Shown: positions 8,837 to 46,767 of the stretch, piece by piece
How the letters are laid out: the number at the start of each line of letters is the position of its first letter
Numbering within the stretch: the first letter of the stretch is position 1
Source of the DNA: Myxococcales bacterium
GTDB taxonomy: Bacteria > Myxococcota > UBA727 > GCA-2721815
Assembly (NCBI GenBank): GCA_002721815.1
Contig: PBLQ01000013.1
Span: 1 to 50,474, forward strand
Reading direction: 5' to 3'
DNA: 50,474 bases
Program-made: the position numbers and the translations under genes
The notes under the pieces: model-generated
What the model saw: only the letters and a program-made list of their open reading frames with translations
The model's database searches: none
What the model was told of the DNA's origin: nothing

Positions 8837-9153
8837 GGACTTTTTCTTTCGGCGGGGAGTTGCTGCCCCCGTGTGGCGCGAACCCCCTGAGAGGGCTGGC
8901 CCCAGTCATCTTCTAAACCCCTAGAATATCACTGTAAAATAAAAACACGTTGGCCTGAAGATTCCTCCAAAAACTGCATTTTTTAGGGTCAAAAACGCCC
9001 CTAATTGGGGCAATGCCGGGACGCGCCGAGAGCGGCGGAAATTCTTCTAACACCTTGAAACTCTTGGGCGGCATGAAAGTCCATTTGGTGCTATACGATC
9101 AAGGTACTGCACGTTTGCGATCCATGCGCAGGCGTGTCGCTTGGGAGAATCAC

Positions 9154-12100
9154 ATGAGAAGCATTTGGGGTGCCCTGTTGGGCCTTTTCGTTTTTGTTGG
9201 TTGCCAGCCTACCACTCAAGACACGCGGGCAGACACCCGTGCGGCCGTTTCGGGTCGTGTGGTGTTGGCTGACACGCCGGGTGTGAGCGATATGAGTCGC
9301 GTGCGCGTTGAAATCGGTAAAGGAGAGGGGGGCTCCACCCCCGAAGAAGACGGCATGTTTCAAATGACCGATCTCGAACCAGATGTGTACGAAGTGCGTG
9401 TGTTGTACATTGGTGGCCTCACTTCAGACGCCACCGAAAGTGCATACCAAGAGTTCACCCGACGGGTTTTGTTGCAAGAGGGCGGCAATGTGGATTTGGG
9501 CGACATCAAACTCGAAGTGGGCCTTGGGGTGGTCACCGGTGGTTTGGTGCTCACCGATGAGAGCTCTACCGATGGGGCCATCGCCCGTTTGACCAACGAC
9601 ACCCTCGTGCGCGAAGCCCCCGTGGTGGATGGGGTATACACTTTTGCCGATGTGCCCATTGGCACCTACAACCTTCAGGTGGAAAAAGAGGGCTACACCC
9701 TGGCGCAAGAGGGCAGCATGTCTGGCTCGTCTGTCGACGACGAAGAGGGTGGCGAGAGCAACGACGCTGAAGGCACCGAAATGGGCGACCTGGGTTGCAC
9801 CCAAAATACCGTGGTGGGTTTTCACAGTGAGAATGTCGCCGCTGCAGATTTCCGTTTTACCCCCACCAATGTGTCGTTATTGCCCGGCATGGGCGAAATC
9901 CAAACCACGCGTGGCAGCCAATGGATTCTATCCACCGAAACCGAAACCCTCACCGCCAATGTGGTGGGTGGGTTTATCACCCACGCGCGCATGTGGACCG
10001 AAAACGCCACACCAGGGGCTTGGGAACCCTTTGCCAGTGGTGCAGGTTTTGAAATTGCGGTGAGCGATTTGATCGAGGGCAACAATGCCATTTATTTTCA
10101 ATTCGCGGGTTGTCGCTATGAATCACCGGTGACCACCTTAAACGTGTTGCTCGACAAAACCGCGCCTTCCGTTGAATCCTTTGAAGTCCGCGGCCGCACG
10201 CCCGCTGATGACGGTGGGTATTGGATAGCCACCGATGCGGCCACCCTCACGGTGGATTTTCTGGCCGATGATGCCCATTCCTCCATTGCGGGGATTGCGG
10301 TGGTGCACACCCAAGACAACGAAGCACCGGCCTTGGCCGATCTGGTCTTCGATGATGTGTCGGCAGGCGACGGCCTCATGATGGGGTCTCGACAAGTGGG
10401 GCTCACAGGCGGCGATGGTGAAAAGAAAATCTTTCTTTTCTTAAAAGATTTGGCGGGCAACATCACCGAATCGGCTTACGGCGACCTGAGTGTGCATGTG
10501 GATACCGAAGCGCCCGTGCCAGGGTCCTTGCTCATTACCGGCAAAGACGCCGCAGGTGAGGCCAGTACCGACGTGACGGCCACCCAAGAGGTGACCTTGA
10601 CCCTGAGCGCTGAAGGCGCCAGCCATTATCGCGTGGGGTACGATGAAACCTTCGGTGGCCAAGCGTGGAACGATTTTGATGTGAGCAGCCGAAGTTGGAT
10701 GTTGATGCCCGGTGATGGCACCAAAACCGTGTATGTGCAGTACAAAGATGCGGTGGGCAATGTCACTTTGCCCATTAGCGCCAGTATCGTTCTTGACACC
10801 CAACCACCATCATCGACCTTTATCAGTCTCAACGATGGTGATGACTTTACCAACAGCACCGCAGCGACAGCCACCTTGAGCGCCACCGATGCCACCCACA
10901 TGCGTTTGAGCGTTGATGGCCTTTTCGATGAGGAGCCCTGGGTGGCATACGACATCTCCCACGAGGTGACCTTGTTGTCCGAGGAAGGTGAGCAACGGGT
11001 GGATGTGATGTTCCGCGATGCGGCTGGCAATGTGTCCATGGTGAAATCAGATGTCATTTATCTCGATATGACCCCACCAGAATTGAGGTCCATGGACCTG
11101 CTGTCCATTGCAGCCGCCAGTGATGGAACCCTGTGGGTGACCGAAGAAAATGCCACTTTGGCCGTGGATATCATGGCCGATGACGGGGCCAGTGGCGTGT
11201 CCGCCGTGGCTTTGGTGGAGGGCATGACCGAACCCAATGCCAATGACGTGACCTTTAATGCGGTTTTCGCCAGTCCCGGCTTATTCTTAAAAACCGAATA
11301 TGTCACACTGAACACCGCCGAGGGACCCACGAATGTGTATTTGTTCCTCAGAGATGCCGCTGGCAACACGTCGGCCATGGCCGGCAGTTTTGCCCTTCAA
11401 GTGGACGCACAAGCGCCCGTGTTTGGTGACCCTGCCATAACGGTCACCAACAAGTCCGGTACGCAAATATATGCCGACCAGGCGGAACTCCAAATTCAAA
11501 TTGCCGATGAAGAAGACCCTGTGATGATGCGTGTTGGATTGCAGCCGCTTACCTCGGCCACGCAGAAAATTCCTTACCAAAGTGAGGTTGCGGTAGGTCT
11601 ACCCTCCCAGACTGGGCTGCCGGTGGCCTTTGAAGTAGAGGTCTTTGACGCGGCCGGTAATATGACCAGTGCCACCAAAAGTGGTTTCGAGGTAAACCGC
11701 AGCGGCTGGCTGCGCGGGAACATCAGCTTAGAAGCGCGACAGCCCGCCCATGTCACCATGGATACCGTACTCAAACTGTTTGATGCGGGGGCAGACTTGG
11801 CAACGACGCCACGTGACATTGAATACGTGACGCCCAGTGGCGAATTCGAGTTTGCCGAAGTGCCTGAAGGCGCGGGGATGACCCTGGTGGTGGAACGCAT
11901 GGGATATAAAACCCAAACCCTCGCGGTTCCGACGATTCAAAGTGGGCTCACTTCCACTTTGGGTGATGTTGAAATGGAGGTGGCACGGGGCTATCTGAGC
12001 GGGCGTATCATGCTCGAGGATTTGATGGACAGCGAAGAAGAAGGGCACAGCGGAATACGGGTGATGGCCCAACTGGTGAGCAGTGCTACCAGCATGACGG

Positions 12101-15100
12101 TGATGGAAGCTTACACCCAAAATGACGGCACCTTTGATTTTCCTTACCCAGGCCTGCCGGTGAATGTGGAAGGAGAAAGCTACACCATTTTGGCGCAACT
12201 CACCGGGTATTTTGCCGAGAGCTTTGAGGGCCAAAATGTGGTGGAAGGCGATGTCACTGAGATGGAGCCCAGCCGGGGTGAACTGCGACCGGTGTCTGGC
12301 GATTTCGATTTGTGTGACCCTTCAACGTTTGGCGACGGCGACTGTCAGCCTGCTGCCTATACTAACCTTGACGCAGTGGGTGTCCGGCTGAGGGTGCGCG
12401 AAGGAGTGACCCAAATACGAGCCATGGTCGGGGACACGCCTTTTGACCCCGAAGCTGCAGAGCCAGCCTGGGAAGATTACCCCACCAATGCGGTACCACA
12501 GGTGGACATACAAAGCGTGGCGGAAGGTATGATCAAAGTCTTTGTTCAAGTCAAAGATGCTGCGGGTAACGCTGGCTTGGTGATGAACAGCCAAATCCTA
12601 GTTGACCGCACCGCGCCCCAAATGCGGGCGCTCACCCTTAATAAATCGGAAGATGCGCTGCGCAGTGACGTGACCAAAGAAAAAGCGGTCAATGTGACGG
12701 CTGAAGCGGAGCTTGAAACAGCGGATTATGCCGCACCTTTGGCTCGGTTTGAAATGGCTTTTTCGGACGAAAGTGCGCCGGATGATGCGAGTCCATTTGA
12801 TGGCTCCGTTCGTAACTGTCCCATTAACAGTGCCTGCGAGGTTTCTTTGCCTCGCTCCATCGGCGATTCGGTGGAAGAAAAACGCCACGTCCTCAACGCA
12901 CGGGTTTGTGACAAAGCGGGCAATTGCTCCGCGGAGTTCGAAACTGCGGCGGTCCTTTACGATAACACACCGCCCTGGATTCAGTCGGGGACGTATGTGT
13001 TGAACCCCGAAGACGCGCAAATGCACGATGGCGTGCACTATGCGCGAACCAATCTTTACTCGATTTTGCTCAACACCGGGACGTCGATCAATACGGCTGA
13101 AGCAGAAATGATGGACCCTGCCTACGAGAGTGACGATATTGACGCGGTGGCTTTGGCCGATATCTACGGTTGGCGTTTGGGTTTTGAGTCCAACCTCATT
13201 GGTGAAGAGTGGCAAACCTTTGATTCAACGCCCCAAGCCGATTATCAAGTGTCGGTGCGCGGCTTGGGCTTGCCCTTTGGATCAACCGAAGAAGAAGTCT
13301 TTATGCAATTTCGAGATGCTGCCGGTAACGTGACCAGTGTGCCCAGCGATTACGCTTTCACGGTGGCACTGGACACCGAAGCCCCGGCGGCCTCCTTTGT
13401 GCTGAATGAGGGTGCAAAATACATTGTGCAGCCGCCCCCCAATCCCTTAGTGAGCCTCATCCCGATTACCTCAGTCGATCTGGGCTTTACCACCACCAGT
13501 AACGATATTTCTGAGGTCCAAGTGAGCCTGACCGGGCTCTTCGACGACACCCAAACCTTTCCATTTTCGGCCTCGGGTATTTCAGTGGATTTGGCACACA
13601 ATGTCATGGTCGAAGATGGCGAACACCATGTCTATGTGCGGTTGGAGGATTGGGCCGGTAACATCACCGAACGCTCCGACAGCATCATTTTAGACCGCGC
13701 GCCCCCCGACATGGGGGCCGTCAGTGTTGATGACGGCAGTGGCTACATGTTGAATTACAACGCTCAAGTGACGGTGAACTGTTACGATGCGCTGGCCAAC
13801 GATGGTGAGTTGCTTTTAGATGTTTCGGTGGACGGTGAAGGTGGACCGGCGCCCGAAGGAACGGGCTACAACGGCCGCTACGGTAACTTAATTGAGTTGA
13901 GTGTGGGCGAAACCCAAGAAGTGAAAACCTTAAACGTGACCTGTACGGACCCTGCTGGCAACAACAGCGAAGTCGTTTCCATACAAGCCACCCTCGATAG
14001 CGAGGCGCCCACCTTTGCCGCGGCCCCCGAGCTGCACCATGGCCTCAACGAGACCAACAACCCCTTGGTCTCGGTGAAGGTTCAGGTGAGCGATGGTGTC
14101 AGCGGGCTGGACATGCTGGCTTTCTCCGAAGCCGACAGTTGCGATAACGTGGCTTTTGTGGAGCCACCGCCAGTACCAAGTTTCTGCGCCAACGACAGTT
14201 CAGAAGAATGCACCTCCGATTCGGATTGTTGTACGGACGATGATGGCGCTGACTGTTTTTGTAACGTCATGGATTTTCGGTACTTGTTGTCTCCGAACGA
14301 TGGCCTCAAACAGGTCTACGTTTGTGCACGGGATATGGCCGGCAACGTTTCAACACCTCGGGAAACCAACACGGTCCTGCTCGACACGAACCCACCCACG
14401 AACCCAGCTTTAAGTTTAACGGGGGGTGAATGGCAGACCAGCAGCTTGACCACGGCGAATTTGTCAGCGGTGGGTGCCTCTCACATGCTGATCGAAGGCG
14501 ATGTGGAAGAAGGCCCGAATACATTTGATTGGATTGACTACGCCACGTCGGTTCCGAATCTAGAACTTTCAGCCGGTGATGGTTTAAAAATCGTACGCGC
14601 CAAATTTAAAGATGAGGCCGGTAACATCACCGATGCGGTGAGTGCCCAAACGAGCGTTGATGAGACCCCACCGGTGGTGAACAGTGCCTCTTGCAGTTCT
14701 TGTCAAACCGTTGAAGGGCAGTTGTATGCGCCAGAGCGTACCATTGCCTTTGATGTCCTGGGCTCTGATGAGGGCGGCTCGGGGGTTGAATGGGTGAAGA
14801 TCAGCTTGGCCGATGGAAGTGCTGAGGCAACCATCTCGTATGGGAACGTGCTTGAATACACTTTGCCAAACAGTGGCACGAGTTTCGATCTGGTGGTTTG
14901 GCTCGTTGATTACGCGGGGAACACCTCCGATGGGAGCGACGATGCGTATAAACAGGAGTTCAATATCCAGCTCGACGATGCGCCGCCTGTGATTCATAGC
15001 TTTTTGGTTACTTCCGCTGCATCGGGCTATGTGACCGATCCTCAACTGGAGATTAAATTGGAAGTCTCTGATGATACGGCGTTCTACCGAATCTCAAATA

Positions 15101-18100
15101 CAGGTGCCTTTACCGGTGAACCGGTGGTGTTTGTCAACGAAAACGATACCAACGGGTACCCTTACGTGTCTTTGCTGCATACGGTGCAAGCGCCTACGGA
15201 AGACGAATCCAAAACGGTCTATGTAGAGGTGGGGGACAATGCAGGAAACACGGCACAGCAATCGGTATCAGTGATTCTTGATACCACCATCCCTGTAGGA
15301 ACCATCGAACTGGCTGGCGGTGCCGACTATGCCACTGTCAACAGGGTGGATGTGGTGTTAACCTATCCCGCTGATGCCACCCATTATGCGGTGCAAAATG
15401 GCCTCATGGATTGTACCACGCAGGACCTCTCCAGCTTTAATTCTGTGGCTACATCGCCACAATCCCTTGAAGACCATCACCTTGGATACGGCGATGGCAC
15501 TAAAACGGTTTCGGTGTGTTACGTGGATGCCGCGGGCAATGTGGCAGGAGCGTCTGACAATATTATTTTGGATACGCAAGGCCCCACTGTTTCGATGGTG
15601 ATCGAAAACGATGCCGCCTACACCCAAACCCGCACCGTCAATTTAAATTTAACGAAGGACGAGGAGATCGATAAAATTGTAATTCTCAACGAAGGCCCGG
15701 GCTGTGATTCTTTAGATTTCGATAATGACGGGGTGGGGTATGAGGATACCAAAGGGCATACGCTTTCAGAGGGTGATGGCACCAAAGAGGTGTTGGTGTG
15801 TTTTAGGGATTTGTCGGGGCAGGTGACAGGGGCCACAGATACCATCGAACTCGACAGCTTGGACCCCAATTCGACATTGACAATCAACGATGATGTGCCG
15901 TACACCAACCAGCGCAGTGTGGCTTTGACCATGGGGCCCAACACGCCAGGGGCGGCAGATTTTACCGATATTGTCAGCATGGCGGTAGATGCTGCCGATT
16001 GTGACACCGCCACCTACACCCCCTTTGTGACCTCTCTGACGTGGCTGCTTGGTGAAACCGAAGGGGACCACACCTTGGAGGTTTGTCTGAAAGACGCTTC
16101 TGGCCGCACCGCCAAAACGCCGGCTGCCACGGTTCATCTGGATACCATTTCACCGGTGCCCACAGTGCTCATTGAAAATGATGATGCGTATACCACGTTC
16201 AAGAAAGCCACCGTCTCTTTTACCTTCCCCGATGATGCCACGCACTACCATGCCGCAGGGGGGGCAGTGAATTGTGAGAATGTCAGCATCACAGATCAAG
16301 TGCCTGCTGACGTTAGTTCGGTCACATTGTCTAACTTTGATTTGCCCAATGCAGAGAATGAAGGCGAGAAAATGGTGACGGTTTGTCTGAAAGACAACTC
16401 TGGCTTGATAGGCTCGTCATTTGACACCATTTATTTCGATAACAACGCACCGACCGTATCGGTGACCATTAACAATGGGGACACTTACAGCCGCTCCACC
16501 AGTGTGGACCTCACCTTGAGTGCTTCTGAGAACATTGCCGCCATTGCTATCGGTGATAAAATGCTCGATTGTAACTCTGAGAGTACCGATTACAGTGTGT
16601 ACGATTACGATGTGTCCATCCCCAATTACGACTTGGGCTCCGCGCAGGGCGAGCGACAGGTGAAGGTGTGTTTTCGGGATGATGCCGGAAACCTTTCATC
16701 GGATGTAGGTTTAATTATTGTGGATACCCTTAACCCGGCCGCGACCCTCAAAATCGGCGATGACGCTGACTACGCCACCCAACGCCAAGTCTCTTTAAGC
16801 CTGTTGGCGGTGGAGGGCGAAACCAACAAGTTCGACGATATCAAATCCATGGCCGTGGCCAACGCTGTTTCGTTGGACTGCGACACTGCCGTGTACCTGC
16901 CATTCACCGCCACCCAAGAACACTTGTTGTCCGATGGGGACGGAGAAAAACAAGTGGTGATTTGCCTGAAAGACCATGCCGGGAACTTTGCATCAATTGG
17001 TCCCGCTGTCATTGAATTGGATACCCAAATCCCCAACGGCGCCATCGAATTGGCAGGCGGCATTGAATTTTTGGGACACGAGTCTTCGGGGGCCCCTCGA
17101 ATCGAGGGGACGCTGACTTTCCCAGACGATACGCTGAAGTACCGAGTGCAGAACGGGTACATGGACTGCACGGCTTCAACGATGGTTGATTTACCTGATA
17201 ACCACGGCGGTACATACACGGTGGAAAACCATTCGTTGTCCAGCGGGGAAGGCGAGAAATTGGTGACGGCCTGCTTTGAAGACGCAGCGGGACTGATGGC
17301 CAGTGCTTCAGCTGCTATCTATGTTGATCAAAGCCCCCCCAATGGCACCATTGTTCTCAACAGTGGCGCTTTAGTGACCGATGATGCAAATTTATCGGTG
17401 ACCATGAGCCCGCCGGCCGATGTGACCCACTATGCCATCGGTGAAGGGTTGGATTGCGATGGCAATGTGAGTTTTATCGCTTACGATGGCGAGAGTATGA
17501 CGGATTACCTCGTGGACCCGGCCATCAGCGGTTTATATACCATTGATGTTTGTTTTAAAGACAGGGCTGGCCTTACCGCAAAGACCACCGCCTCCATCAT
17601 ACTCGATGTGGACGCACCGGTGGTGAACAGTGTGACCATCACAGATGCAGACGGCAATGCCATCGATTACGCCAAAGGGGTGAACGTCTATGTCCAAGTC
17701 AACATCACCGATTTGCCTGACCTCACGGGAGACAGTGGGTCTGATGGAGATCCAGGTGGCGGGAGCGGTACTGGTGGCGGCGGCGGCGGCTCGGGAGGAC
17801 CGGACACCGAAACAACCTTAGATGTACCCAATCTTGAAATGATGATTTCTGAAGACGCTGGTTTTGCCAATGCCGAATGGGTCACTTTCAAGGCATTCAA
17901 ACCATTTACGTTTTCCACCGCCAATGGGCCCAAAAATGTATATGTGAAGGTTCGTGACGGTGCTGAGCAAGAGAGTAACGTTGCGTCAGATGCCGAGGGT
18001 GTGATCTTGGACACTGAGTCGCCCACCATTACCAGTGCGACATTCATTGAATCCAGTCCCAATGCCTTGCCAGGCCGTGTCAACCCAACAGACCTCGCAG

Positions 18101-21100
18101 AAGATACGGAGTTTTGTCCAGGGGGTAATGCCTCGACCGATCCCAAGAAACGGTTTTTGTCCATTGAGCTTGAGACCAATGATAACTTGGCGGGGAGCTT
18201 GACCGCGAGCGTGGGTTTGGGCAGCTCTTGCGGGGACAACTATTCCCCCTTGTCAGGAAATACGGTCACCGTTGAAGTGGGCTGTGAAGATGATGGCATC
18301 CACTGGGTGGGCATCTGTGTCAAAGACGCGGCCGGCAACAGGTACACTCATCCGTCAATCATGCTGATCCTAGACCGCCAGGCGCCAGAACAAGTGAGTA
18401 ACGTGACTGCGGTGGGCGGGAGCCGTCAGGCGATGATCGATTGGCAAGAAGCCGCAGATCTGGGGGATTCTGGAATACAGGGTTATGAAATTAGATATGC
18501 AAGTTTTGCAGAGCTCGACGGCGTGGGGACCGTCAGTGTTGGGGACATCACCTCTTACAGTCTCACGGGACTCCAAGATCGGGCCACATACTATTTTCAA
18601 GCAGCGGCAAGAGATGCTGCGGGCAACCTCGGCGAATTCTCGGCCATGAAGAGTTTTACCACCGGATTCGCACAAACCGTGCCGCGTTCTGATGTGACTG
18701 ACGCCATTATCGCTGATCCAGATCGCCGCTTTGCTCAGGCAACGGTCTTTGAGGCCATGGGCCAGTTGTACGTGTTTAGCTATCCCACTTACGAGGCAAA
18801 CCCCATTTTGAAAGTTAAAACCTGTGCCTACCGGACAGACAACTGTCGCGACCCTCAGCAGTGGACCGAGTTTGACCTGATTTTAGGTGACATTGATAGG
18901 GAAACCACTTGCGTCGCTGATGATGAATGTGGCGGTGGTCGGTGCCACGAGGGATTTTGCTACCAAAATGTTTGGTCGTTTGGTGCAGAAAATGTCCGTG
19001 CTTTGGCCACTTCCTATCGCATATATATCGCGGCAATGACCAATAAAGGGCCGGCGTTGTTCACCTGCGACAGAGGTTGTACGGCCGCGGCCACACAATC
19101 TGCCGATGGTTTAGGTTTTTCGCTCACATATTTGGAACGGAACAATGAAGATGGTTGCAGGATTGATCAAGGTGGCGCCAGCTGGCGTAGCATTGATATC
19201 GCTGAGACCACGGCCGGTATTCACGTGGCCTATAATGCGACTGAAGGAGACATTTGCGTCGCCAGTTGCGGGAAGGCGTATGAGGCCGTTCCAAACACGG
19301 GTATGGACGTTGGGCCGGGGTGCCAACTCAACCAAAACTGGTTTCACGTCAATGTGAGCGATGTTGATTCTAAGCCTGCATTTGACCTTGCTGACCGCGG
19401 ACCTTTAGACTTGGAGGCCTGGGATGACAGGATTGTGCTGGCCTACGAGTCAGAAAATGAGGGGATCGAAGTCATCTCTTGCTATACCGGGTCTGGGTGT
19501 ATCAATTCGGGGAATTCTACGGGCTGGGATCGGTTTGACGCCAATGCCACTTCAATGACTTTTGCGCCTCTCAATCCGGCCGGAATCGAGTACAATTCGC
19601 CTCGTATCATCTTAACCCAAGACTATATTTATACCCTTTGGCGTAAAATCGGGAGTTATTCCACCACCAAAATCAACCGGTGCGCTCGCGACGCTTGGAT
19701 TGCCGATAATGACGCATGTTATCCCGCCGACAATGAAGATGGAACTCAAGGTTCCTTCACCCAGTTGTGGGGACAGATCGAAGGCGGTGAAATGCTGAGC
19801 TTGTTCAAGGGCGCAGGTGCCTTACACCAGGTTTGGTGGAACAAATCGCAATCTCGCGTGAAATACGCGGTTTGCGAAAACCCCAACGCGACCGATTGCA
19901 GTGATGGGGATAATTGGGATCGTGTTGTTCTTGCCAATGAAGTGCCCAGTCGCACCATCCCTCACGTGGTCCAATATGGACAGAATGTGCTGGCATCTTG
20001 GATCGATGCCAACGCACACGTTCACCTGGCCTTGCCCATGGTCCCTGCACCCGATGGTTTTGTGGTCTGGCCCAGTGCGCAATCCTTACGTGCGAGTTGG
20101 AACCCCGTCAGTTACGTCGATGGTTATGACCTGTGGTACCAGAATGCCAGGGCTTATGGGGCGTCTTTAGACACCAACCTTTGGGAACAACGCATTCCGT
20201 TAAACGATGCTTTCGTGAATGAAGTGAGTATGTCTTTGGATACAGGCGCGTCTGACGAGCTTATGACCTACAACACGTGTATCCGTGCCTACGGTAATTC
20301 AGGCGAAGAATCTTCGGATGGTGATATGTATCAGGTGACCGCTTTCGTTGAGGAAACGCTTTCCAGTGACATCCCCGGGAATTTCTCTAGCAGAACCTGT
20401 GCCGCTGACAACACTTGCAGCAATTATGGGGCTGATGGTTGGGGGAGTAACGTGGGGTATGCGTACACCATCAACAATGATGGGGTGTATGTGGCGCTTC
20501 AGGGGCGCCCTGAAGTACGGTTGGCCCTCCCGAATGATGCCACTGCCGGTATTTTAGATGTGCTACTGACGCCCCAATCGTCAACCCGTTTGGGTGATTA
20601 TGATAACGGTTACTTTTTTGTGGTGACTGGCATCAACCATCGGAACGCGATACCCGAAACCATCGTCATGAATGTCTGCCAGTTTAATTTGGGGCAAGGC
20701 AGAGATTGTTCTTTTTCGGACGCATGGCATTCTTACGAGGTCGTCGATAACGATACCTCAAATTTGGGCAATGCTAATGATGGTAAAACCACCGCGCAGT
20801 TGGTTCATGATGGTGCCGATCGGGTATTCTTGGCCTACCGCATGAGTGACCGTGATCAAGCTACGGCCAACAAAGTGGCTTTTGTCTCCTGCTTTTTAAC
20901 GACCTACGCTAACGGTGAAACCACCGGTTGTACGGAGGAGAGTCAATGGCTCGATTATACCTTCGGGGGTCCCCATTGGAAGGGCATGAAAACCATCCCC
21001 GGGCGCTTCAGTATTGCCGCGGGCCAAACCCAAATCACCAATCAATCCGGTGCTGTGGAAGACAAGGGGGTCGTTTTTCTGAGTTACCACCGGCAAGACA

Positions 21101-21768
21101 CAAATCATGCAGGCGCCACCATTTACCACGTGGATGTGCATGGGGCCACCTATGATGCGGCGGATGATAATGCCTCTGTGTTCTATGCCCACGACCAAGC
21201 AACCTTGTTAAATGATTACGGCAATGATGTTCATGACTACTTGATTAAAACGGATGTGAGTTCAGATATGAGCGTGGTTTTACTCGCCACAGGTCGTCAG
21301 ACCTCTGATTTATTGGCCATGGAACTGTTCATTTGCTCTGAGAGCCCTGTTTACTGCACCCAAGGTGATTTTGGTGGTGCGCCGGGGAACAACGTCCTCG
21401 ATCATTGGGGGCGCGTGAAGCTTGGGGCACTGGACACCACAGGGTCGGTGGGTATGGATTTGAGAGTGACCGATGACGGGCAAATCTACGTGGGGTACAC
21501 GCACCGCAATCAAGTGAGAATGGCCCATTGTGCCGAAAATTGTACCGATATCGCCCAGTGGCGCGATGGCGTGTTACACATCGACCCGGTGGTCTCTCCA
21601 GCCATGTATAATAACGGCGTATTTTGGTTGACCGAAGAACCCAGTTTGAGTGAAGGCATACCTGCGAAAATCGGTTTTGTTTTGGGGAGATCTGCCGCGT
21701 TTGATGATGAAACCAGAAAGTTGAAAGCTTTCACGGGTGGTGAGTGGCTACCGCTCAAGGTTTACTGA
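9154..21768 (+). CDS. Giant (~4205 aa) cell-surface lipoprotein/adhesin: two CarbD-like domains, ~24 Ig-like LDTxxP repeats, Gly-rich linker, FN3, Cys/Trp-rich blade-repeat C-terminal region
   Basis: A single uninterrupted ORF. The start was chosen at ATG 9154 (MRSIWGALLGLFVFVGCQ, lipobox) with a GGGAGA RBS. The track ORF begins at 9013 but that part lacks a signal peptide. Domain content was read from the translation. Confidence 0.9.
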   Translation: MRSIWGALLGLFVFVGCQPTTQDTRADTRAAVSGRVVLADTPGVSDMSRVRVEIGKGEGGSTPEEDGMFQMTDLEPDVYEVRVLYIGGLTSDATESAYQEFTRRVLLQEGGNVDLGDIKLEVGLGVVTGGLVLTDESSTDGAIARLTNDTLVREAPVVDGVYTFADVPIGTYNLQVEKEGYTLAQEGSMSGSSVDDEEGGESNDAEGTEMGDLGCTQNTVVGFHSENVAAADFRFTPTNVSLLPGMGEIQTTRGSQWILSTETETLTANVVGGFITHARMWTENATPGAWEPFASGAGFEIAVSDLIEGNNAIYFQFAGCRYESPVTTLNVLLDKTAPSVESFEVRGRTPADDGGYWIATDAATLTVDFLADDAHSSIAGIAVVHTQDNEAPALADLVFDDVSAGDGLMMGSRQVGLTGGDGEKKIFLFLKDLAGNITESAYGDLSVHVDTEAPVPGSLLITGKDAAGEASTDVTATQEVTLTLSAEGASHYRVGYDETFGGQAWNDFDVSSRSWMLMPGDGTKTVYVQYKDAVGNVTLPISASIVLDTQPPSSTFISLNDGDDFTNSTAATATLSATDATHMRLSVDGLFDEEPWVAYDISHEVTLLSEEGEQRVDVMFRDAAGNVSMVKSDVIYLDMTPPELRSMDLLSIAAASDGTLWVTEENATLAVDIMADDGASGVSAVALVEGMTEPNANDVTFNAVFASPGLFLKTEYVTLNTAEGPTNVYLFLRDAAGNTSAMAGSFALQVDAQAPVFGDPAITVTNKSGTQIYADQAELQIQIADEEDPVMMRVGLQPLTSATQKIPYQSEVAVGLPSQTGLPVAFEVEVFDAAGNMTSATKSGFEVNRSGWLRGNISLEARQPAHVTMDTVLKLFDAGADLATTPRDIEYVTPSGEFEFAEVPEGAGMTLVVERMGYKTQTLAVPTIQSGLTSTLGDVEMEVARGYLSGRIMLEDLMDSEEEGHSGIRVMAQLVSSATSMTVMEAYTQNDGTFDFPYPGLPVNVEGESYTILAQLTGYFAESFEGQNVVEGDVTEMEPSRGELRPVSGDFDLCDPSTFGDGDCQPAAYTNLDAVGVRLRVREGVTQIRAMVGDTPFDPEAAEPAWEDYPTNAVPQVDIQSVAEGMIKVFVQVKDAAGNAGLVMNSQILVDRTAPQMRALTLNKSEDALRSDVTKEKAVNVTAEAELETADYAAPLARFEMAFSDESAPDDASPFDGSVRNCPINSACEVSLPRSIGDSVEEKRHVLNARVCDKAGNCSAEFETAAVLYDNTPPWIQSGTYVLNPEDAQMHDGVHYARTNLYSILLNTGTSINTAEAEMMDPAYESDDIDAVALADIYGWRLGFESNLIGEEWQTFDSTPQADYQVSVRGLGLPFGSTEEEVFMQFRDAAGNVTSVPSDYAFTVALDTEAPAASFVLNEGAKYIVQPPPNPLVSLIPITSVDLGFTTTSNDISEVQVSLTGLFDDTQTFPFSASGISVDLAHNVMVEDGEHHVYVRLEDWAGNITERSDSIILDRAPPDMGAVSVDDGSGYMLNYNAQVTVNCYDALANDGELLLDVSVDGEGGPAPEGTGYNGRYGNLIELSVGETQEVKTLNVTCTDPAGNNSEVVSIQATLDSEAPTFAAAPELHHGLNETNNPLVSVKVQVSDGVSGLDMLAFSEADSCDNVAFVEPPPVPSFCANDSSEECTSDSDCCTDDDGADCFCNVMDFRYLLSPNDGLKQVYVCARDMAGNVSTPRETNTVLLDTNPPTNPALSLTGGEWQTSSLTTANLSAVGASHMLIEGDVEEGPNTFDWIDYATSVPNLELSAGDGLKIVRAKFKDEAGNITDAVSAQTSVDETPPVVNSASCSSCQTVEGQLYAPERTIAFDVLGSDEGGSGVEWVKISLADGSAEATISYGNVLEYTLPNSGTSFDLVVWLVDYAGNTSDGSDDAYKQEFNIQLDDAPPVIHSFLVTSAASGYVTDPQLEIKLEVSDDTAFYRISNTGAFTGEPVVFVNENDTNGYPYVSLLHTVQAPTEDESKTVYVEVGDNAGNTAQQSVSVILDTTIPVGTIELAGGADYATVNRVDVVLTYPADATHYAVQNGLMDCTTQDLSSFNSVATSPQSLEDHHLGYGDGTKTVSVCYVDAAGNVAGASDNIILDTQGPTVSMVIENDAAYTQTRTVNLNLTKDEEIDKIVILNEGPGCDSLDFDNDGVGYEDTKGHTLSEGDGTKEVLVCFRDLSGQVTGATDTIELDSLDPNSTLTINDDVPYTNQRSVALTMGPNTPGAADFTDIVSMAVDAADCDTATYTPFVTSLTWLLGETEGDHTLEVCLKDASGRTAKTPAATVHLDTISPVPTVLIENDDAYTTFKKATVSFTFPDDATHYHAAGGAVNCENVSITDQVPADVSSVTLSNFDLPNAENEGEKMVTVCLKDNSGLIGSSFDTIYFDNNAPTVSVTINNGDTYSRSTSVDLTLSASENIAAIAIGDKMLDCNSESTDYSVYDYDVSIPNYDLGSAQGERQVKVCFRDDAGNLSSDVGLIIVDTLNPAATLKIGDDADYATQRQVSLSLLAVEGETNKFDDIKSMAVANAVSLDCDTAVYLPFTATQEHLLSDGDGEKQVVICLKDHAGNFASIGPAVIELDTQIPNGAIELAGGIEFLGHESSGAPRIEGTLTFPDDTLKYRVQNGYMDCTASTMVDLPDNHGGTYTVENHSLSSGEGEKLVTACFEDAAGLMASASAAIYVDQSPPNGTIVLNSGALVTDDANLSVTMSPPADVTHYAIGEGLDCDGNVSFIAYDGESMTDYLVDPAISGLYTIDVCFKDRAGLTAKTTASIILDVDAPVVNSVTITDADGNAIDYAKGVNVYVQVNITDLPDLTGDSGSDGDPGGGSGTGGGGGGSGGPDTETTLDVPNLEMMISEDAGFANAEWVTFKAFKPFTFSTANGPKNVYVKVRDGAEQESNVASDAEGVILDTESPTITSATFIESSPNALPGRVNPTDLAEDTEFCPGGNASTDPKKRFLSIELETNDNLAGSLTASVGLGSSCGDNYSPLSGNTVTVEVGCEDDGIHWVGICVKDAAGNRYTHPSIMLILDRQAPEQVSNVTAVGGSRQAMIDWQEAADLGDSGIQGYEIRYASFAELDGVGTVSVGDITSYSLTGLQDRATYYFQAAARDAAGNLGEFSAMKSFTTGFAQTVPRSDVTDAIIADPDRRFAQATVFEAMGQLYVFSYPTYEANPILKVKTCAYRTDNCRDPQQWTEFDLILGDIDRETTCVADDECGGGRCHEGFCYQNVWSFGAENVRALATSYRIYIAAMTNKGPALFTCDRGCTAAATQSADGLGFSLTYLERNNEDGCRIDQGGASWRSIDIAETTAGIHVAYNATEGDICVASCGKAYEAVPNTGMDVGPGCQLNQNWFHVNVSDVDSKPAFDLADRGPLDLEAWDDRIVLAYESENEGIEVISCYTGSGCINSGNSTGWDRFDANATSMTFAPLNPAGIEYNSPRIILTQDYIYTLWRKIGSYSTTKINRCARDAWIADNDACYPADNEDGTQGSFTQLWGQIEGGEMLSLFKGAGALHQVWWNKSQSRVKYAVCENPNATDCSDGDNWDRVVLANEVPSRTIPHVVQYGQNVLASWIDANAHVHLALPMVPAPDGFVVWPSAQSLRASWNPVSYVDGYDLWYQNARAYGASLDTNLWEQRIPLNDAFVNEVSMSLDTGASDELMTYNTCIRAYGNSGEESSDGDMYQVTAFVEETLSSDIPGNFSSRTCAADNTCSNYGADGWGSNVGYAYTINNDGVYVALQGRPEVRLALPNDATAGILDVLLTPQSSTRLGDYDNGYFFVVTGINHRNAIPETIVMNVCQFNLGQGRDCSFSDAWHSYEVVDNDTSNLGNANDGKTTAQLVHDGADRVFLAYRMSDRDQATANKVAFVSCFLTTYANGETTGCTEESQWLDYTFGGPHWKGMKTIPGRFSIAAGQTQITNQSGAVEDKGVVFLSYHRQDTNHAGATIYHVDVHGATYDAADDNASVFYAHDQATLLNDYGNDVHDYLIKTDVSSDMSVVLLATGRQTSDLLAMELFICSESPVYCTQGDFGGAPGNNVLDHWGRVKLGALDTTGSVGMDLRVTDDGQIYVGYTHRNQVRMAHCAENCTDIAQWRDGVLHIDPVVSPAMYNNGVFWLTEEPSLSEGIPAKIGFVLGRSAAFDDETRKLKAFTGGEWLPLKVY
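10141..17650 (+). repeat. Array of ~24 tandem ~95-105-aa Ig-like domains, each ending in an [IV]xLD[TR]xxP boundary motif and carrying a DAAGN/DxAGN strand
   Basis: Recurring boundaries include VLLDKTAPS, VHVDTEAPV, IVLDTQPPS, IYLDMTPPE, ILDTQGPTVS, IELDTQIPNG and ILDVDAPVVN. Copies are divergent (protein-level only), so this is not an assembly artefact. Confidence 0.7.
17752..17806 (+). repeat. Gly-rich low-complexity linker (GDPGGGSGTGGGGGGSGGPD) encoded by a GGC/GGT-rich simple repeat
   Basis: ggtggcgggagcggtactggtggcggcggcggcggctcgggagga read directly from the sequence. Confidence 0.6.
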
Positions 21769-21872: not shown

Positions 21873-24800
21873 ATGCGTCATCTTATCCTTCTTATTTTTT
21901 GTATTTCTGGGGTTTTAGGCGGTTGCCAACCCGTCACCAACGACACCCGCGCCGATGTGCGCGCTGCCATTTCTGGGCGTGTCGTCTTGGTGGACGAAAA
22001 CGGCTTAAACGATGTCAGTCGCGTCCGGGTTGAGCTGGGCAAAGGAGAGGGGGGGACCACCCCTGAAGAAGACGGCAGTTTTCAACTCTCGGACTTAGAA
22101 CCCGATGTCTATGAATTACGTGTCATCTATTCTGGCGGCTTAACGCCTGACGCCTCGGAGAGTGCGTACCAACAATTCAGTCGCCGTTTGCTGCTCCAAG
22201 AGGGGGGCAACCTGGATTTGGGTGATGTGGAGCTCCAGTTGGGTGTGGGGTCGGTGTCTGGTCAGCTGAGCGTCGAAGAAGGCCTCGATATCTCTTCTGC
22301 AACCGTGAACCTGTCGCGCATCACCTCATCGGACAAATCGCTGCGCCGCGTGGGCGACACCACCTACAGCCAAGCCCTCGAAGAAGATGGCAGCTTCACC
22401 TTAGAAAACGTTGCAGTGGGCTCTTATTATATGGTGGTTGAAGGCGATGGCATCTCTGCCACTTCAGGCTCTGCTTGCTTAGAGGTGGTGAGCGTTGACG
22501 AAGATTTACAAGTTAAAGAGGCCCCTTCTTTTTCATTGGCTTCCACCGCAGTGCGTTTTTCTGCCGGTACCGACCAAGTGATTGGCTTAGACACCTCAAG
22601 CCGTTGGTTGCTTTCGGGCGAGGGTGTCACCGTGCACATTCAAGCTTCTTTTGCCTTTGCCCAAAAAGTGTGGACGCAAGGCGAAGAGATGCCGGCTGAA
22701 TTTACAGATATTGACGAGGCAGACCGAGCAGACATCGTTCATATTTTTGAAAATATCGAAGAAGGTGAAAACGAAGTCTACTTTCAATTCGCAGACCCCT
22801 GTGGCTTTGAAAGCGAGGTGCTCACGCTGACTTTGGTGCGCGATATCTCACCTCCAGAGATTTTAAGTGCGCATTTGAACAACGAAGTGGCTTACAGCAC
22901 TGCAAGTACGGTGGCGCTCACGGTGGATGCCGTGGACGTGTTGTCAGACACCTTAGAAATGCAATGGGGCGTGTGTTTGTCGGGCGAGAGTGATTGTACG
23001 CCTTTAGACAGCGATGCCTCCAGCTGGACGCCTTATGTGCCTTATGTGAGCGTGCCTTTGGCCGAGGGCGATGGCACCTATCGGCTCGGTCTTCAACTCC
23101 GTGATGCATCACAGAACGCAACGGCCGTGGTGGAACGCAGCGTGACGTTGGATACGGTGGCGCCCACAGACTTAAGTTTGACCATCGGGGATGGGTCGGC
23201 CTTCATCACCGAGGCGAGTCAAATCTTGCGTCTGACGGGTGAGGGCATTTTTGAAATGCAGATCGGGACAGACTTGGCCGACGCCCCTTGGCAACCCTAT
23301 CAAGAGTACAGCAGCTACACCTTTTTGCCCTCTAGCGTCCCCGTGACATTGTATGCCAAAGCCCGTGATGAAGCGGGCAATATGACCGAATCCGTGGAAG
23401 CCAGCGTGACCTTAGATGCCACGGGGCCACAGGCACCCAGTGTGGTGCTCAACAATGGTGAACTGTTCTCCAATGGCCTAGCCGCTTTGGCTGATACAGA
23501 TGCTTCAGTACAAGGCGTCCGCATTGCCTTGAGCGTTGCCGGGGGCGAAGCCGGTGGGCAGGTCTTGATTGCAGGTGATGTTGAGGAAGCGGGCGCTTAC
23601 CCGTGGCCTGATCACCCCACTGAAGTGACTTTTGAGCGTGAAGAAGGAGAAAAAGAAATCAAAGTCGTACTGAGCGATGCGGCGGGCAACCACTCTGCCG
23701 TCACCAAGAGCACCGTCATGTTTGACTTTACCCGTCCAGTTTTAAACAATCTTCGTTTAAATGGTGATCGTGGTTACGCTCAAAGCGGCAATGTGAGTCT
23801 TGGATTGAACGCCACAGAGTTACATTTGAATCATCTCCAAATGAAGGTGGCCTTGTGTGTCTTGTCTGAAAACCCCCAAGACCACCTCAATCCCGCCGAG
23901 GAAATGACGTGCACGCCCTCACTTGAAGAACTGGAATGGGCTTCTTTTGCCGCTTTCCAAAATTTGAGCTTCCCTGAGGGAGACGGGGCGAAAGGCGTGC
24001 AAGTACGTTTGCGCGATGGTGCGGGCAATGAGAGTGAGGCCACGCTCATGAGGGCCTTTGTGCTGGACAGCACGCCACCCCAAAACGTGAGTCTGACCAT
24101 TGGTGATGGGTCGGCTTTTATCACCCAATTAACGCAAACAATCACATTGACTGGCGAAGGGATTGCAGAAATGAAGGTGGGCACTGACTCAGCCGGCGTC
24201 ACTTGGCAGCCTTACCAAGAAAATTTCATGTATACGTTTTCGCCTTCTGACGTGCCCGTGACGCTTTATGCCAGAGCCCATGATGAAGCGGGCAATACCA
24301 CAGATTTCGTGGAGGCCATGGTCACCTTTGATGCCACAGCTCCCCAAAACGCACAGGTGACGCTGAACGATGGCAGTCTTTTTTCAAACAATGATGCCTA
24401 CCAGGCGAATCTCAGCATTCTCGGCGGCGAAGAAGGCGGCCAGGTCATTCTGTCCGGTGACCTTGTTGAGGCGGGTGCCTACGATTGGCCCAATTACCCA
24501 TCCGAAGTGACCTTTGTGGCGGGCGAGGGCGACAGAGAAGTTCAAGTGGCCTTAAGCGACAGCGCTGCGAACTTTTCAGACTTTGTTTCGGCCATTGTCA
24601 TTTTTGACCTTACTGCGCCGGTGAACAATGTGGCATCTTTAAACCAAGACGATTTGTATTCTCAATCCGAGGTGGTCTCTTTGGTGCTGAATGTGACCGA
24701 GGCCCATGAAGATGGCTTACAAATGCGTGTGGCACAGTGCAGTCTTCCCAGTATGCCGCGAGACCACTTGAATCCTGCTGATCCAATGACCTGCGACCCT

Positions 24801-30800: not shown

Positions 30801-31241
30801 ACGCGCGCTTTTACCGTAACATCAAATTTAGCAGAAACCGCGACGGCAGATGCAAATCACAGTTGGGCCACTGCCTACGGACCTTCACGTGTGCTGGATG
30901 GAGATACAGATACGTTTTGGTGGTCGGATGATATGGCAGCGAGCAATGTCCCCTCGGCTCAATTGACGGTTACGCTTGCGGAGGAGCGCTCCATTAATCG
31001 GATAAGAATTGTGACGGGTGAAAGGTTTTTGCAATCGTTTGATCTGGAAGTTTCTACTGATAACCAGAATTATGAAATACTTGGCAGTTATTCTACGGAT
31101 GCTTATGGTGTCAAGATGATAGAATTTGAGCCGACCGATGCAAAGTATGTTCGTTTGAATCAAATTACGGCCCAACCCAATGAGTACAATCGGGAAATAT
31201 GTGGCATCTTAGAATTGGGTGTCTACGAAAACCAAGAGTGA
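21873..31241 (+). CDS. Giant (~3123 aa) cell-surface lipoprotein/adhesin, paralogous at its N-terminus to the upstream giant; Ig-like domains, tandem 303-aa units, ~9 CarbD-like domains, FN3, His-rich beta-helix-like region, C-terminal discoidin (F5/8 type C) domain
   Basis: Start ATG 21873 (MRHLILLIFCISGVLGGCQP, lipobox). Residues ~30-170 align with giant 1. Giant 2 reads RADVRAAISGRVVLVDENGLNDVSRVRVELGKGEGGTTPEEDGSFQLSDLEPDVYELRV. Giant 1 reads RADTRAAVSGRVVLADTPGVSDMSRVRVEIGKGEGGSTPEEDGMFQMTDLEPDVYEVRV. C-terminal ...FWWSDD...RIRIV...YVRLNQI... is discoidin-like. Confidence 0.9.
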   Translation: MRHLILLIFCISGVLGGCQPVTNDTRADVRAAISGRVVLVDENGLNDVSRVRVELGKGEGGTTPEEDGSFQLSDLEPDVYELRVIYSGGLTPDASESAYQQFSRRLLLQEGGNLDLGDVELQLGVGSVSGQLSVEEGLDISSATVNLSRITSSDKSLRRVGDTTYSQALEEDGSFTLENVAVGSYYMVVEGDGISATSGSACLEVVSVDEDLQVKEAPSFSLASTAVRFSAGTDQVIGLDTSSRWLLSGEGVTVHIQASFAFAQKVWTQGEEMPAEFTDIDEADRADIVHIFENIEEGENEVYFQFADPCGFESEVLTLTLVRDISPPEILSAHLNNEVAYSTASTVALTVDAVDVLSDTLEMQWGVCLSGESDCTPLDSDASSWTPYVPYVSVPLAEGDGTYRLGLQLRDASQNATAVVERSVTLDTVAPTDLSLTIGDGSAFITEASQILRLTGEGIFEMQIGTDLADAPWQPYQEYSSYTFLPSSVPVTLYAKARDEAGNMTESVEASVTLDATGPQAPSVVLNNGELFSNGLAALADTDASVQGVRIALSVAGGEAGGQVLIAGDVEEAGAYPWPDHPTEVTFEREEGEKEIKVVLSDAAGNHSAVTKSTVMFDFTRPVLNNLRLNGDRGYAQSGNVSLGLNATELHLNHLQMKVALCVLSENPQDHLNPAEEMTCTPSLEELEWASFAAFQNLSFPEGDGAKGVQVRLRDGAGNESEATLMRAFVLDSTPPQNVSLTIGDGSAFITQLTQTITLTGEGIAEMKVGTDSAGVTWQPYQENFMYTFSPSDVPVTLYARAHDEAGNTTDFVEAMVTFDATAPQNAQVTLNDGSLFSNNDAYQANLSILGGEEGGQVILSGDLVEAGAYDWPNYPSEVTFVAGEGDREVQVALSDSAANFSDFVSAIVIFDLTAPVNNVASLNQDDLYSQSEVVSLVLNVTEAHEDGLQMRVAQCSLPSMPRDHLNPADPMTCDPVLEDIPWAPYASYQNLIFNEDGAKGVQVQVQDGAGNLSGAVQRAFVLDRLAPRSISIAIGDGSAYVTQRTQVVSIQDDRREATHMKIGLVEGLPGVPWQAFQDQIEVTFSEEEGEKTVYAQFRDAAGNETPSTSASVTYTTLGTITGKVVAEDLQDLSLVEVSVLGGSGSVYPEANGTFTISDIPEGVYTVQAQVTGPWASKYNVAQYGVAVEALQTTSMPDMVLNLARGNVSGAIDLEAQNHNGGVVVQLLPLSVADQGMADGGVANETWDGGEAEDDGFIYTTITTDEGAFAINGVVVGQYQLKASKPNYVSQTFAPIGVLANEMAEIPTIYLEVQKGDVSGVVQVEAFVGSMDDGNDSDGGTNDLRTRVSFLNLNSQLTVSPGEAFTFDGVALGPQTMRFEVLPPYDDLYAPVEKAVEVTAGLSSVPQVYMPLLRGSLSGSVANENTLPVIGALVSIQELDLVMVSNTNGEFEFLSVPVGVYTLKINSAGYGEETLTAQVQANTNTDLGLQTLVREKGNVQGLVNIEGGLSPNNVAVSVVGGSQSAQASETEPNSTNGSFLLEGVDPGLQTLRFEVTGGDAVNYLAKELDVVVQAAQTIEVNGGQPLTVLKARGSISGTVLLDNHNGDVDVLVQIPSESEAVLTNADGSFVFSDVPVGQYNLTFQRSGYQAATANNQLVTNGGITIVDTLTLPELLGSISGQVVLEEGSDFSGIEVSLTGTNHSVTTDIDGNFNLPDIRPGFYNVLMRNDGFQDLRENGVYVQALVDNDLGGFVLTRARGLLEGVVRLEGLENHLGIKVEFPNTGYTTYSAVDGSFDLNVPVGNYPDLTFSKTHYGTVVLADTITVTEYGTYAVEPVDLVQVSKSVTGSAFYQGMDDHQGILVQAYGLNAGGTETLVDETTTSTAGTYGFESLPLGQYRFRFSNPLANTSWSRPFFQVALEVGAAEEMPSVFLQNMFVFINDDDLATNNPVVTLNVGAMGCDTMRVANEGDDLSAAPLVTCPQSQQLSDWSLNDVNQGEEEERKVFAQFYDAQGNELGPPVFDSILLDKKLEIDTDFEWGGSSWLPNETGYFTMIDFAVGVPIGETVDKVWVDMGAYQPELLLLYDGEARLNPANEAEPVLQVYRRSFTVLDRTDAHNVEVQFKVQDAAGNIATSVLGTTSFVFPPEILQQTIVADTAAGTATLFLQTDEISSGTVAWGNTLDYNEPLISLSADTQHETIFTGLVPGEPYYVKIDIEDLSGNALDSIYKIFFLRPAAPVRVVAMAGDGRVDVRWEMPGRYVGNGYEQNRDQFDVPVQWNIRGYEIYKATDNGDNVCDETDTFTPVSPAGGYDHPTLLYHDQDENGVHQVSNGILYCYRVAALDENGIEGDLSDIVEARPTLNNGGTYVGCDTYVDETGATQNCDITSGAFLTNTVWTSAGSPYHVKASLAFLENVAWFVGPGTEIILSPGVELDIYHQFGFYGQTSDVLFELDDDGHAQVDPEGMVHLHGVEGEADWKWLKLHGGAPLGRVNIGANPRFFAGNMIFRTRVSNADRALYLNGGDLVMLNSWYHDNKAFDPVTGSALKWGQGNLIEDSGFGTYEYDLNRFENQVHRNSEFSAEHGFTQNMVIMCDSYCSHQTFIDVASIYDSQSESVVHYGGEIYFSVLSDITLGTYAHWHNSHGYGNKFSNHGTVYHSLMDGVVFTGTQFHPGLTNSWFVEPPTAWSIYRGINNNKYAAFHHNSFFDSGIASSIDSITAYGWYSNTPTTHLDANFYGATHTLELDAADASTDVSFLNDVFDDAEKPRFVWDDYLSEPTPVIQIQGPLMLAELQTQKPYDLTARVAHGAEYIAEDAVFEWVWEASDDSETVSVGSVFTVTPPSRFINTWEHVILEAHVRIMTTGGFYVYASHTIKALENNQYHSGYQVIPEGIVWPVTQDYTFPQGAHWLHGPSLVSPPDKPAIAKMVCGYADCVMTCFLNEEPQICDHGVWHARLDEGAYTLRVEVHDSEGLELQTPLTRAFTVTSNLAETATADANHSWATAYGPSRVLDGDTDTFWWSDDMAASNVPSAQLTVTLAEERSINRIRIVTGERFLQSFDLEVSTDNQNYEILGSYSTDAYGVKMIEFEPTDAKYVRLNQITAQPNEYNREICGILELGVYENQE
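23152..25215 (+). repeat. Internal tandem repeat of a ~303-aa (~909-nt) two-domain unit, ~2.3 copies (units begin ~23152, ~24061, ~24936)
   Basis: Unit A reads VTLDTVAPTDLSLTIGDGSAFITEASQILRLTGEGIFEMQIGTDLADAPWQPYQE...VTLYAKARDEAGNMTESVEASVTLDATGPQAP. Unit B reads FVLDSTPPQNVSLTIGDGSAFITQLTQTITLTGEGIAEMKVGTDSAGVTWQPYQE...VTLYARAHDEAGNTTDFVEAMVTFDATAPQNA. A partial unit C reads FVLDRLAPRSISIAIGDGSAYVTQRTQ... Copies are diverged, roughly 55% aa identity. Confidence 0.75.
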
Positions 31242-36135: not shown

Positions 36136-36819
36136 TTAGGGCGTGGTGGCTTCCTGTCGTGCTTTGTCGATGGCAGCCTGGACCTTTTCGGGTTCTAACC
36201 CACTAATGCTCGCCACTTGGTTGCCCTTCGCATCAAACACGAAAACATGGGGCAATTTTGACATGTATTGACCGTATTTTTTGGCCAATGGAGTTTCCCA
36301 GGTCACGATGTTGAGCTTGCGTACTGCTACATCACTTTGGGTTTGTAAGATTTTGTTGAGATGCTTATCGAGTATCCGGCATGGTCCGCACCAGGGCGCA
36401 TAAAAATCGACGACCGTTATTTTGCCTACTGCCAAATGCTCCTTCACCTCAATGGCTTGACCCTCTAATGCAAGCCAGGAGACATCGAGCCCTTCATCGT
36501 AACGTTCAGGAGGCAAATAGTTACCTTGGCCAGCGCCCAGTACAATCTTGTACCCCGCGGTGCTGGCTTGCTTTTGAAGCGTTTCTGGTGTGGTTTTTTC
36601 CGGATTGTAGTCCACCGAGAGTTCCGCGTTCGCATAGTCAAACTTGGCCTCTTTCACGTGTGGGTTTTTTTGGAGCGCCTTAACCGCTTTGCCGCCACAA
36701 CTTGCACAGCTTAATTTCTGCATGGACAAAACCACGTTAGCGGTCTCTCCGTGTGCGCATCCTTGGAGTAAAAACCAACAGAGGACAACAGACAGCGTAT
36801 AAAGCTTTTGTAATTGCAT
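36136..36819 (-). CDS. Lipoprotein fusing an N-terminal heavy-metal-associated (HMA, CxxC) domain to a C-terminal thioredoxin domain (WCGPC)
   Basis: Lipobox LLQGCAHG. HMA motif MQKLSCASCGGKAVKAL. Thioredoxin active site FYAPWCGPCRILD. Strong AAGGAAAC RBS. Confidence 0.8.
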   Translation of the reverse strand: MQLQKLYTLSVVLCWFLLQGCAHGETANVVLSMQKLSCASCGGKAVKALQKNPHVKEAKFDYANAELSVDYNPEKTTPETLQKQASTAGYKIVLGAGQGNYLPPERYDEGLDVSWLALEGQAIEVKEHLAVGKITVVDFYAPWCGPCRILDKHLNKILQTQSDVAVRKLNIVTWETPLAKKYGQYMSKLPHVFVFDAKGNQVASISGLEPEKVQAAIDKARQEATTP

Positions 36820-46644: not shown

Positions 46645-46767
46645 TTTGTATCCCAAAAACTTCGAAAAGACATCCTATATATGCACCATTGATGGGGTTT
46701 GGTCATCAGATAACCCAGGTGATGTGAAAGGTGTCATCTTCTGTGAAGAGTGATACATTCTGTCACC

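Follow-up and report, generated by a model that had tools for sequence, protein, structure and literature searches.

What a long Cys- and Trp-rich protein tip is built like, and what it does, is the question raised by a 50,474-nucleotide stretch of a Myxococcales bacterium (contig PBLQ01000013.1, positions 1 to 50,474; hereafter the window). The tip lies at the C-terminus of giant 1, an open reading frame (ORF) of 4251 amino acids (aa) at 9013-21768, delimited from the ORF list and from Pfam matches in its stalk; the region under study, referred to as the head, corresponds to aa 3220-4251, the last 1032 residues. Giant 1 and all features described within it are on the forward strand. A first-pass annotation had compared the region to a beta-propeller or, alternatively, to a repeated binding domain stabilised by disulfides, and had been unable to place it in a known family. 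Our analysis makes it highly probable that the head is built of two tandem seven-bladed propellers separated by a small beta-sandwich, and the overall explanation that we favour, as a probable one, is that of a giant lipid-anchored fibril whose head is stapled by disulfides and likely binds a ligand.

The change in composition claimed to follow a fibronectin type III (FN3) domain was clear. The Cys content was 2.81% in the head vs. 1.27% in the stalk (Fisher test, P = 0.0017), and that of Trp 2.42 vs. 0.75% (P = 6e-5). The FN3 domain immediately before the head (aa 3128-3210; 18394-18642) was also borne out, with a Pfam fn3 match of E 1.2e-8 (35.4 bits, cutoff 25) and PDB matches to FN3 domains of titin and contactin. 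Nearly all Cys of the head occurred in close pairs, with a Trp after them, and the pattern C-x(2-12)-C-x(0-25)-W appeared 13 times as compared to 3.7 ± 1.9 in 2000 shuffles, none of which attained 13. The five strings quoted as examples of the repeat were all found in the protein. The repeats themselves therefore stand, but not their number, since about 12 had been proposed and the predicted structure has 14 blades (7 + 7); their length, given as about 55-70 aa, corresponded to a blade period of 64-81 aa in giant 1 and of 53-58 aa in distant homologues. No tandem repeats were present at the DNA level, and BLASTP of the first against the second half of the head was not significant; at the sequence level, the blades are old and divergent.

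AlphaFold2 (AF2) gave no fold from the single sequence (predicted local distance difference test, pLDDT, of 32), and reached a pLDDT of 60.6 and a predicted template modelling score of 0.62 with the 15 rows of alignment A1. Values were 70-87 in the strands of propeller 1 and of the FN3-like domain, and 35-73 in the second half. The DSSP string of the model displayed seven four-stranded units, a seven-strand sandwich (aa 3681-3776), and seven more units; these repeated four-stranded antiparallel sheets round an axis are what the generic beta-propeller fold consists of, so far as the model can be trusted. When Cys and Trp positions were placed on this string a simple rule emerged, in which the first Cys ends the third strand, the second falls in the next loop, and the Trp stands right before the fourth strand; the seventh blade of either half had no Cys pair. 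A Foldseek comparison with the PDB yielded 144 matches at E <= 1e-3, and among the best 50 of these 144 almost all were propeller proteins, including the ROS1 ectodomain, DDB1, CPSF160, EMC1, integrin alpha-V, LGI1, prolyl oligopeptidase, GH74, and sialidase-like and other glycoside hydrolase propellers. Alignment of the propeller 1 profile with that of propeller 2 by hhalign (probability 99.0%, E 3.8e-18, 303 columns) showed, at the profile level, that the less well modelled second half is an ancient homologous duplicate of the first. The propeller option of the first-pass annotation was thus supported by a predicted tandem seven-blade fold.

Propeller 1 comprises seven predicted blades (aa 3228-3675; 18694-20037), and the short N-terminal strand 3228-3233 may close its ring. 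Cys pairs were located in blades 1 to 6 (3271/3278, 3352/3356, 3419/3437, 3490/3496, 3557/3569, and 3621/3629), with none in blade 7; in blade 3 the conserved pair was C3419/C3437 and not C3415/C3419. The most conserved stretch of the whole family, according to the conserved columns of alignments A1 and A3, corresponded to blade 6 (19819-19917), with the pattern ALHxxWW-x8-Y-x2-C-x2-P-x3-DC-x5-W, whose DNA pattern was unique within the window. Propeller 2 (aa 3796-4251; 20398-21765), delimited from the AF2 strand groups and hhalign, also has seven predicted blades, at lower model confidence, with pairs 3796/3802, 3889/3899, 3960/3973, 4108/4115, and 4173/4177; its blade 4 has lost a pair that the homologues retain. 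The family-conserved Cys pair was present in 10 of the 14 predicted blades of giant 1. At the very end, the tail FTGGEWLPLKVY (21733-21765) was similar to the tails WDGKAVPLE, FGGKAVPLE, and WDGKAVPRP of homologues, and the proteins of the family terminate 2-5 residues past its conserved Pro; it could be either a ring-closing strand or a sorting or recognition tag.

Between the propellers, aa 3681-3776 (20053-20340) form a predicted beta-sandwich of seven strands (pLDDT 67-87) that holds Cys3756 and in which W3696, G3704-Y3705, and W3724 are conserved. A second FN3-like segment had been proposed at this place. The seven-strand sandwich of the model agrees with it, but no Pfam fn3 match appeared even at E 10, and neither this segment nor three homologous ones matched any Pfam family at E <= 10; the FN3/Ig-like fold is thus suggested by the predicted sandwich.

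A 4-Cys insertion, TTCVADDECGGGRCHEGFCY (aa 3298-3317; 18904-18963; C3300, C3306, C3311, and C3316), was located between blades 1 and 2. It had been noted as a disulfide knot at the start of the region; the motif exists, but lies around 80 residues further in. The insertion was shared only with P0001, a fragment with 44% identity, in which the spacing differs (ACPLPSGDDPCTPPSQCVAGYCRY), and was absent in seven distant homologues, whose blade 1 runs straight into blade 2. Pfam gave only sub-threshold matches on it (DUF7107 at E 0.07, and spider toxins). Assignment to a disulfide-knot family was rejected on account of these matches and of the absence of the element from distant homologues; as judged from the alignments, this 4-Cys element decorates an inter-blade loop in one lineage and does not define the family. 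The CxxxxxCGGGRCxxxxC mini-insertion would add two further disulfides to the blade 1-2 loop.

The family to which the head belongs turned out to be very small. A full HMMER scan of 1.84 billion (1.84e9) representative proteins retrieved 15 matches, 10 of them at E <= 1e-10. One, P0013, was rejected because it matched through FN3 repeats only, leaving 14 true relatives: six fragments (37-52% identity; from ENA marine assemblies where the source was checked), two longer partial sequences (26-27%), and six complete proteins of 631-2708 aa (28-31%). Those with a name come from Myxococcota-type metagenome-assembled genomes and are labelled as Ig-like domain repeat protein (Myxococcota bacterium), fibronectin type III domain-containing protein (Pseudomonadota bacterium or Myxococcales bacterium), or hypothetical protein (Deltaproteobacteria bacterium), and the clusters of the ten relatives that were checked were all singletons. 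Full-length relatives presented the same order of elements, starting from a lipobox, CarboxypepD_reg-like or Ig-like repeats, and FN3, and continuing in the head with six Cys-pair repeats, the FN3-like segment, six more repeats, and a short tail of the type [WF]-x-G-K-A-V-P-L-E. Their repeats were more regular, with C-x5-7-C-x5-W in each 53-58 aa, six per propeller. In addition, the 631-aa protein P0015 (MCC6805980.1; contig of 66.5 kb) possesses a lipobox of its own. Its sequence opens within propeller 1 (blades 5-7) and runs on through the FN3-like domain into propeller 2, so that it represents either a gene that is truncated or wrongly called, or a head that lacks the stalk.

Columns of alignment A1 conserved at 80% or more contained almost only Cys, Trp, Gly, and Pro. 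Ten Cys pairs were conserved pairwise across the family, and the Cys counts in eight homologue heads (26, 26, 18, 26, 24, 28, 24, and 18) were even in every case. This gave indirect support to the disulfide stabilisation proposed earlier. Conservation of the Cys spacing, which had been suggested as a check, was confirmed for the pairs and for the x5-W distance, with longer loops, and thus a blade period of 64-81 aa, in the lineage of giant 1.

The earlier failure to recognize a known family also held: sequence searches of Pfam, NCBIfam, and the PDB linked the head to none of the propeller families, BNR/sialidase and YVTN among them, and for giant 1 and its homologues returned nothing beyond the first FN3. 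An idealised protein of six consensus blades gave spurious summed scores in Pfam (TDP-43_N, BNR_4, and others), with no stretch passing individually, and one non-significant PDB sequence match (E 1.2); both results were discounted. Other collections added little. A word-indexed homology search, run with the sequence and with alignment A1, gave zero matches, yet it missed relatives present in the same collection, which therefore reflects insensitivity of the tool and not absence of the family. Scans of GTDB genomes with the protein and with a degenerate blade 6 DNA pattern gave 14 matches, among which only the already known contig of P0009 was real, the remaining ones being rejected as chance matches by tblastn; nothing was found in a scan of Joint Genome Institute (JGI) metagenomes. 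The most fitting description of the head is that of a rare family, new at the sequence level, whose fold is well known; none of its relatives is annotated as such.

At its other end giant 1 carries a probable lipoprotein signal. The longest ORF opens 47 codons upstream of M48 (9013-9204), as do the 4251-aa calls on related contigs; near-identical ENA/TARA Oceans contigs, located through the neighbouring YhhN gene, likewise encode a 4251-aa protein. M48 is probably the true start and much more plausible, with the lipoprotein signal MRSIWGALLGLFVFVGC directly after it and the lipobox Cys at residue 64 (ALLGLFVFVGC; 9154-9204). The residue numbers of the first-pass annotation ran about 47-50 below those of the ORF, a shift that fits a start at M48. 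According to the lipobox pattern, a signal peptide ending [LVI..][ASTG..][GAS]C detected by a PROSITE-type regular expression, giant 1 is a predicted lipoprotein; the same expression was positive in giant 2, a second large protein encoded next to it, and in homologues P0005, P0007, P0009, and P0015. A Pfam scan of aa 1-3219 identified the Ig-like families Big_13 and Big_3_2 together with CarboxypepD_reg in the stalk, and no domains of RTX proteins or of type I secretion system (T1SS) substrates either there or in the head. The stalk also contains an isolated acidic Cys cluster, FCANDSSEECTSDSDCCTDDDGADCFC (aa 1724-1750; 14182-14262), and a Gly/Ser-rich low-complexity linker, GDSGSDGDPGGGSGTGGGGGGSGGPD (aa 2906-2931; 17728-17805).

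All these elements suggest how such a protein might work. The distal part would be ordered as FN3, a seven-bladed propeller, an FN3-like sandwich, and a second seven-bladed propeller. In most blades a Cys would end the third strand, a second Cys would follow 3-17 residues on in the C-D loop, and a Trp would open the outermost fourth strand; each pair may then form a short-range disulfide stapling the C-D hairpin, with the Trp packed in the blade core. Outside the cell, under oxidising (marine) conditions, these staples would confer rigidity on the head. The lipobox would anchor the protein to the envelope, and around 3,000 residues of Ig-like and CarboxypepD_reg repeats would place the head far from the cell, where the propellers could act as a non-catalytic lectin-like or protein-binding module in attachment to particles, prey, or hosts. 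Surface exposure is likely because about 4,200 residues of tandem beta-sandwich domains would hardly be periplasmic. Binding is preferred over catalysis because no conserved catalytic-type residues and no Asp-box, FRIP, YWTD, FG-GAP, or WD signatures were seen; the assignment of the tip as a ligand-binding head is nevertheless a tentative one, for which we would give slightly less than even chances.

Several points weigh against this explanation. The ligand is putative, and surface exposure is assumed from the size of the protein. The model is of medium quality, with pLDDT of 35-73 in propeller 2, it was built on an alignment of only 15 rows, and the blades were read from strand groups, with Cys-Cys proximity and ring closure as putative features. 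A local partner is available for each of the 29 Cys of the head other than C3756, in the FN3-like domain, which stays unpaired, and the partners of two extra Cys (C3382 and C3415) are guessed.

Two other functions deserve consideration, each of them unlikely in our opinion. The head might have no specific external ligand and serve as a structural cap or for self-association, bundling fibrils or forming a surface lattice, possibly with giant 2. The purely structural nature of the conservation would fit this, as would its maximum in blades 6-7 of propeller 1 and at the beginning of the FN3-like domain, a zone that might serve as an interface between domains, and the position of giants 1 and 2, adjacent, with a common base module and no terminator between them. 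Loops and the 4-Cys insertion, in contrast, vary strongly among lineages, as expected of a surface adapting to ligands, and tandem propellers at the tip of extracellular proteins usually bind ligands (integrins, ROS1/sevenless, PLL lectins), which also counts against a cap. Alternatively, the propellers could be catalytic and, by means of the stalk, degrade polymers at a distance; examples would be glycoside hydrolases or lyases (sialidase, GH74, GH145) and CylK-like enzymes. Enzymes of this kind do occur among the structural matches, but at 7-12% identity and not better than non-enzymatic propellers; there was no sequence match to enzyme families, no Asp-box or FRIP motif, and the conserved Cys, Trp, Gly, and Pro columns included no acidic or basic cluster besides the D of "DC". 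A third possibility, in which every repeat would be a small separate domain stabilised by disulfides, and these domains would be strung like beads and not closed into propellers, would agree with the local Cys pair of each repeat, the failure of single-sequence AF2, and the lack of BLAST similarity between halves, and is very improbable given the predicted tandem fold.

The disulfide-stapled binding head, which we retain as the favoured explanation, can be extended, although only as a speculation that we regard as rather doubtful, to an undescribed lectin-like recognition module with one staple per blade, restricted to the giant lipid-anchored fibrils that Myxococcota-type bacteria (uncultured marine ones included) produce and recognising prey or particles, the 4-Cys insertion tuning its specificity. 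In uncultured marine bacteria, most giant surface proteins receive no label beyond "Ig-like repeat" or "FN3", leaving their functional tips blank. One such tip has now been delimited, belonging to a very rare family whose few relatives carry no annotation of it, and a testable model is proposed with two predicted seven-bladed propellers and about 13 local disulfides. A Pfam-type model could be started from the simple signature of the family, C-x5-7-C-x5-W, which recurs at intervals of 53-80 residues. Should the head prove to be a lectin or a prey-recognition module, it would provide a handle on attachment by Myxococcota-like bacteria in the ocean. Neither the fold nor the principle of a head on a stalk is new, and the conceptual gain is therefore modest.

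Giants 1 and 2 share an N-terminal base module, made of the lipobox and CarboxypepD_reg-like sequence (9154-10200 and 21873-22900; 41% identity over 347 aa, E 4e-75), the identity being visibly much higher over the initial ~120 aligned aa. By eye, P0005 also displayed such a segment at its N-terminus. The gap between the two genes is 71 nt and contains no terminator-like site, and they therefore look like a co-transcribed fibril pair with different heads. The head of giant 2 is a different one, terminated by an F5/8 type C (discoidin) domain (aa 3004-3114; 30849-31181; Pfam E 1e-14). With a common base, unlike heads, and no terminator between their genes, the two giants may constitute paired fibrils whose tips can be exchanged. 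The ~700 aa before the discoidin domain are rich in His, Trp, and Tyr, gave no Pfam match, and represent a further head without family assignment. Three further genes of the window lie on the reverse strand, encoding an HMA-thioredoxin fusion protein (36136-36819), an Omp85-family protein (40662-41915), and a protein with an Lcl_C (DUF1566-type) domain (44800-46656). The Omp85 gene points to a diderm organism, and its product could be relevant to the export of surface proteins; the HMA-thioredoxin fusion could be relevant to thiol/disulfide chemistry of the envelope.

As regards known systems, the WD40, YWTD, and YVTN-NHL propellers gave no Pfam match at E <= 1 in giant 1 or in four homologues, and regular expressions found no Asp-box (S-x-D-x-G-x-T-W, also in relaxed form), FRIP, YWTD, FG-GAP, or WD motifs in the head. 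The six-bladed BNR/sialidase propellers shared structural similarity (Foldseek target TM-scores, TMt, of 0.51-0.54 to 4irt and 5muk/5mul/5mvh/5mum), without an Asp-box, FRIP, or BNR Pfam match on the side of the head. ROS1/Sevenless ectodomains have in common with it the alternation FN3-propeller-FN3-propeller, and provided the top Foldseek match (9pwq_A, E 4e-10) at 9% identity; YWTD propellers are six-bladed, the YWTD motif is absent from the head, and the likeness is an architectural analogy only. With respect to the integrin alpha propeller, the head lacks FG-GAP Pfam matches and Ca-binding D-x-[DN]-x-[DN]-G-x-x-[DE] loops, the partner beta subunit has no counterpart here, and the head is bacterial. 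Marinomonas MpIBP, LapA, and SiiE are giant adhesins with distal ligand-binding modules, RTX/T1SS substrates held by an N-terminal plug. As in giant 1, their tandem Ig-like domains form a stalk that extends over several thousand residues and bears specialised domains at its distal end. Giant 1, in contrast, has no RTX/T1SS Pfam domains and begins with a lipobox. PLL lectins (PLL 5c9o, BP39L 6gxr, and CV39L 6gxs) share the seven-bladed propeller with the predicted head at 8-11% identity; neither homology at the sequence level nor a W-motif register in common with PLL, PHL, or BP39L was detected. They are free proteins of ~40 kDa with disulfides linking subunits, and bind fucose and galactose at sites between blades by CH-pi stacking on Trp (PMC6943638). 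The propellers of the head, in contrast, are part of a 4251-aa lipoprotein; their blades measure 64-81 aa and carry the Cys pairs within them, and sugar-binding residues are not mappable. Taken as a whole, the head resembles a lectin- or integrin-type seven-bladed propeller mounted at the end of a stalk, and its architectural role is a familiar one.
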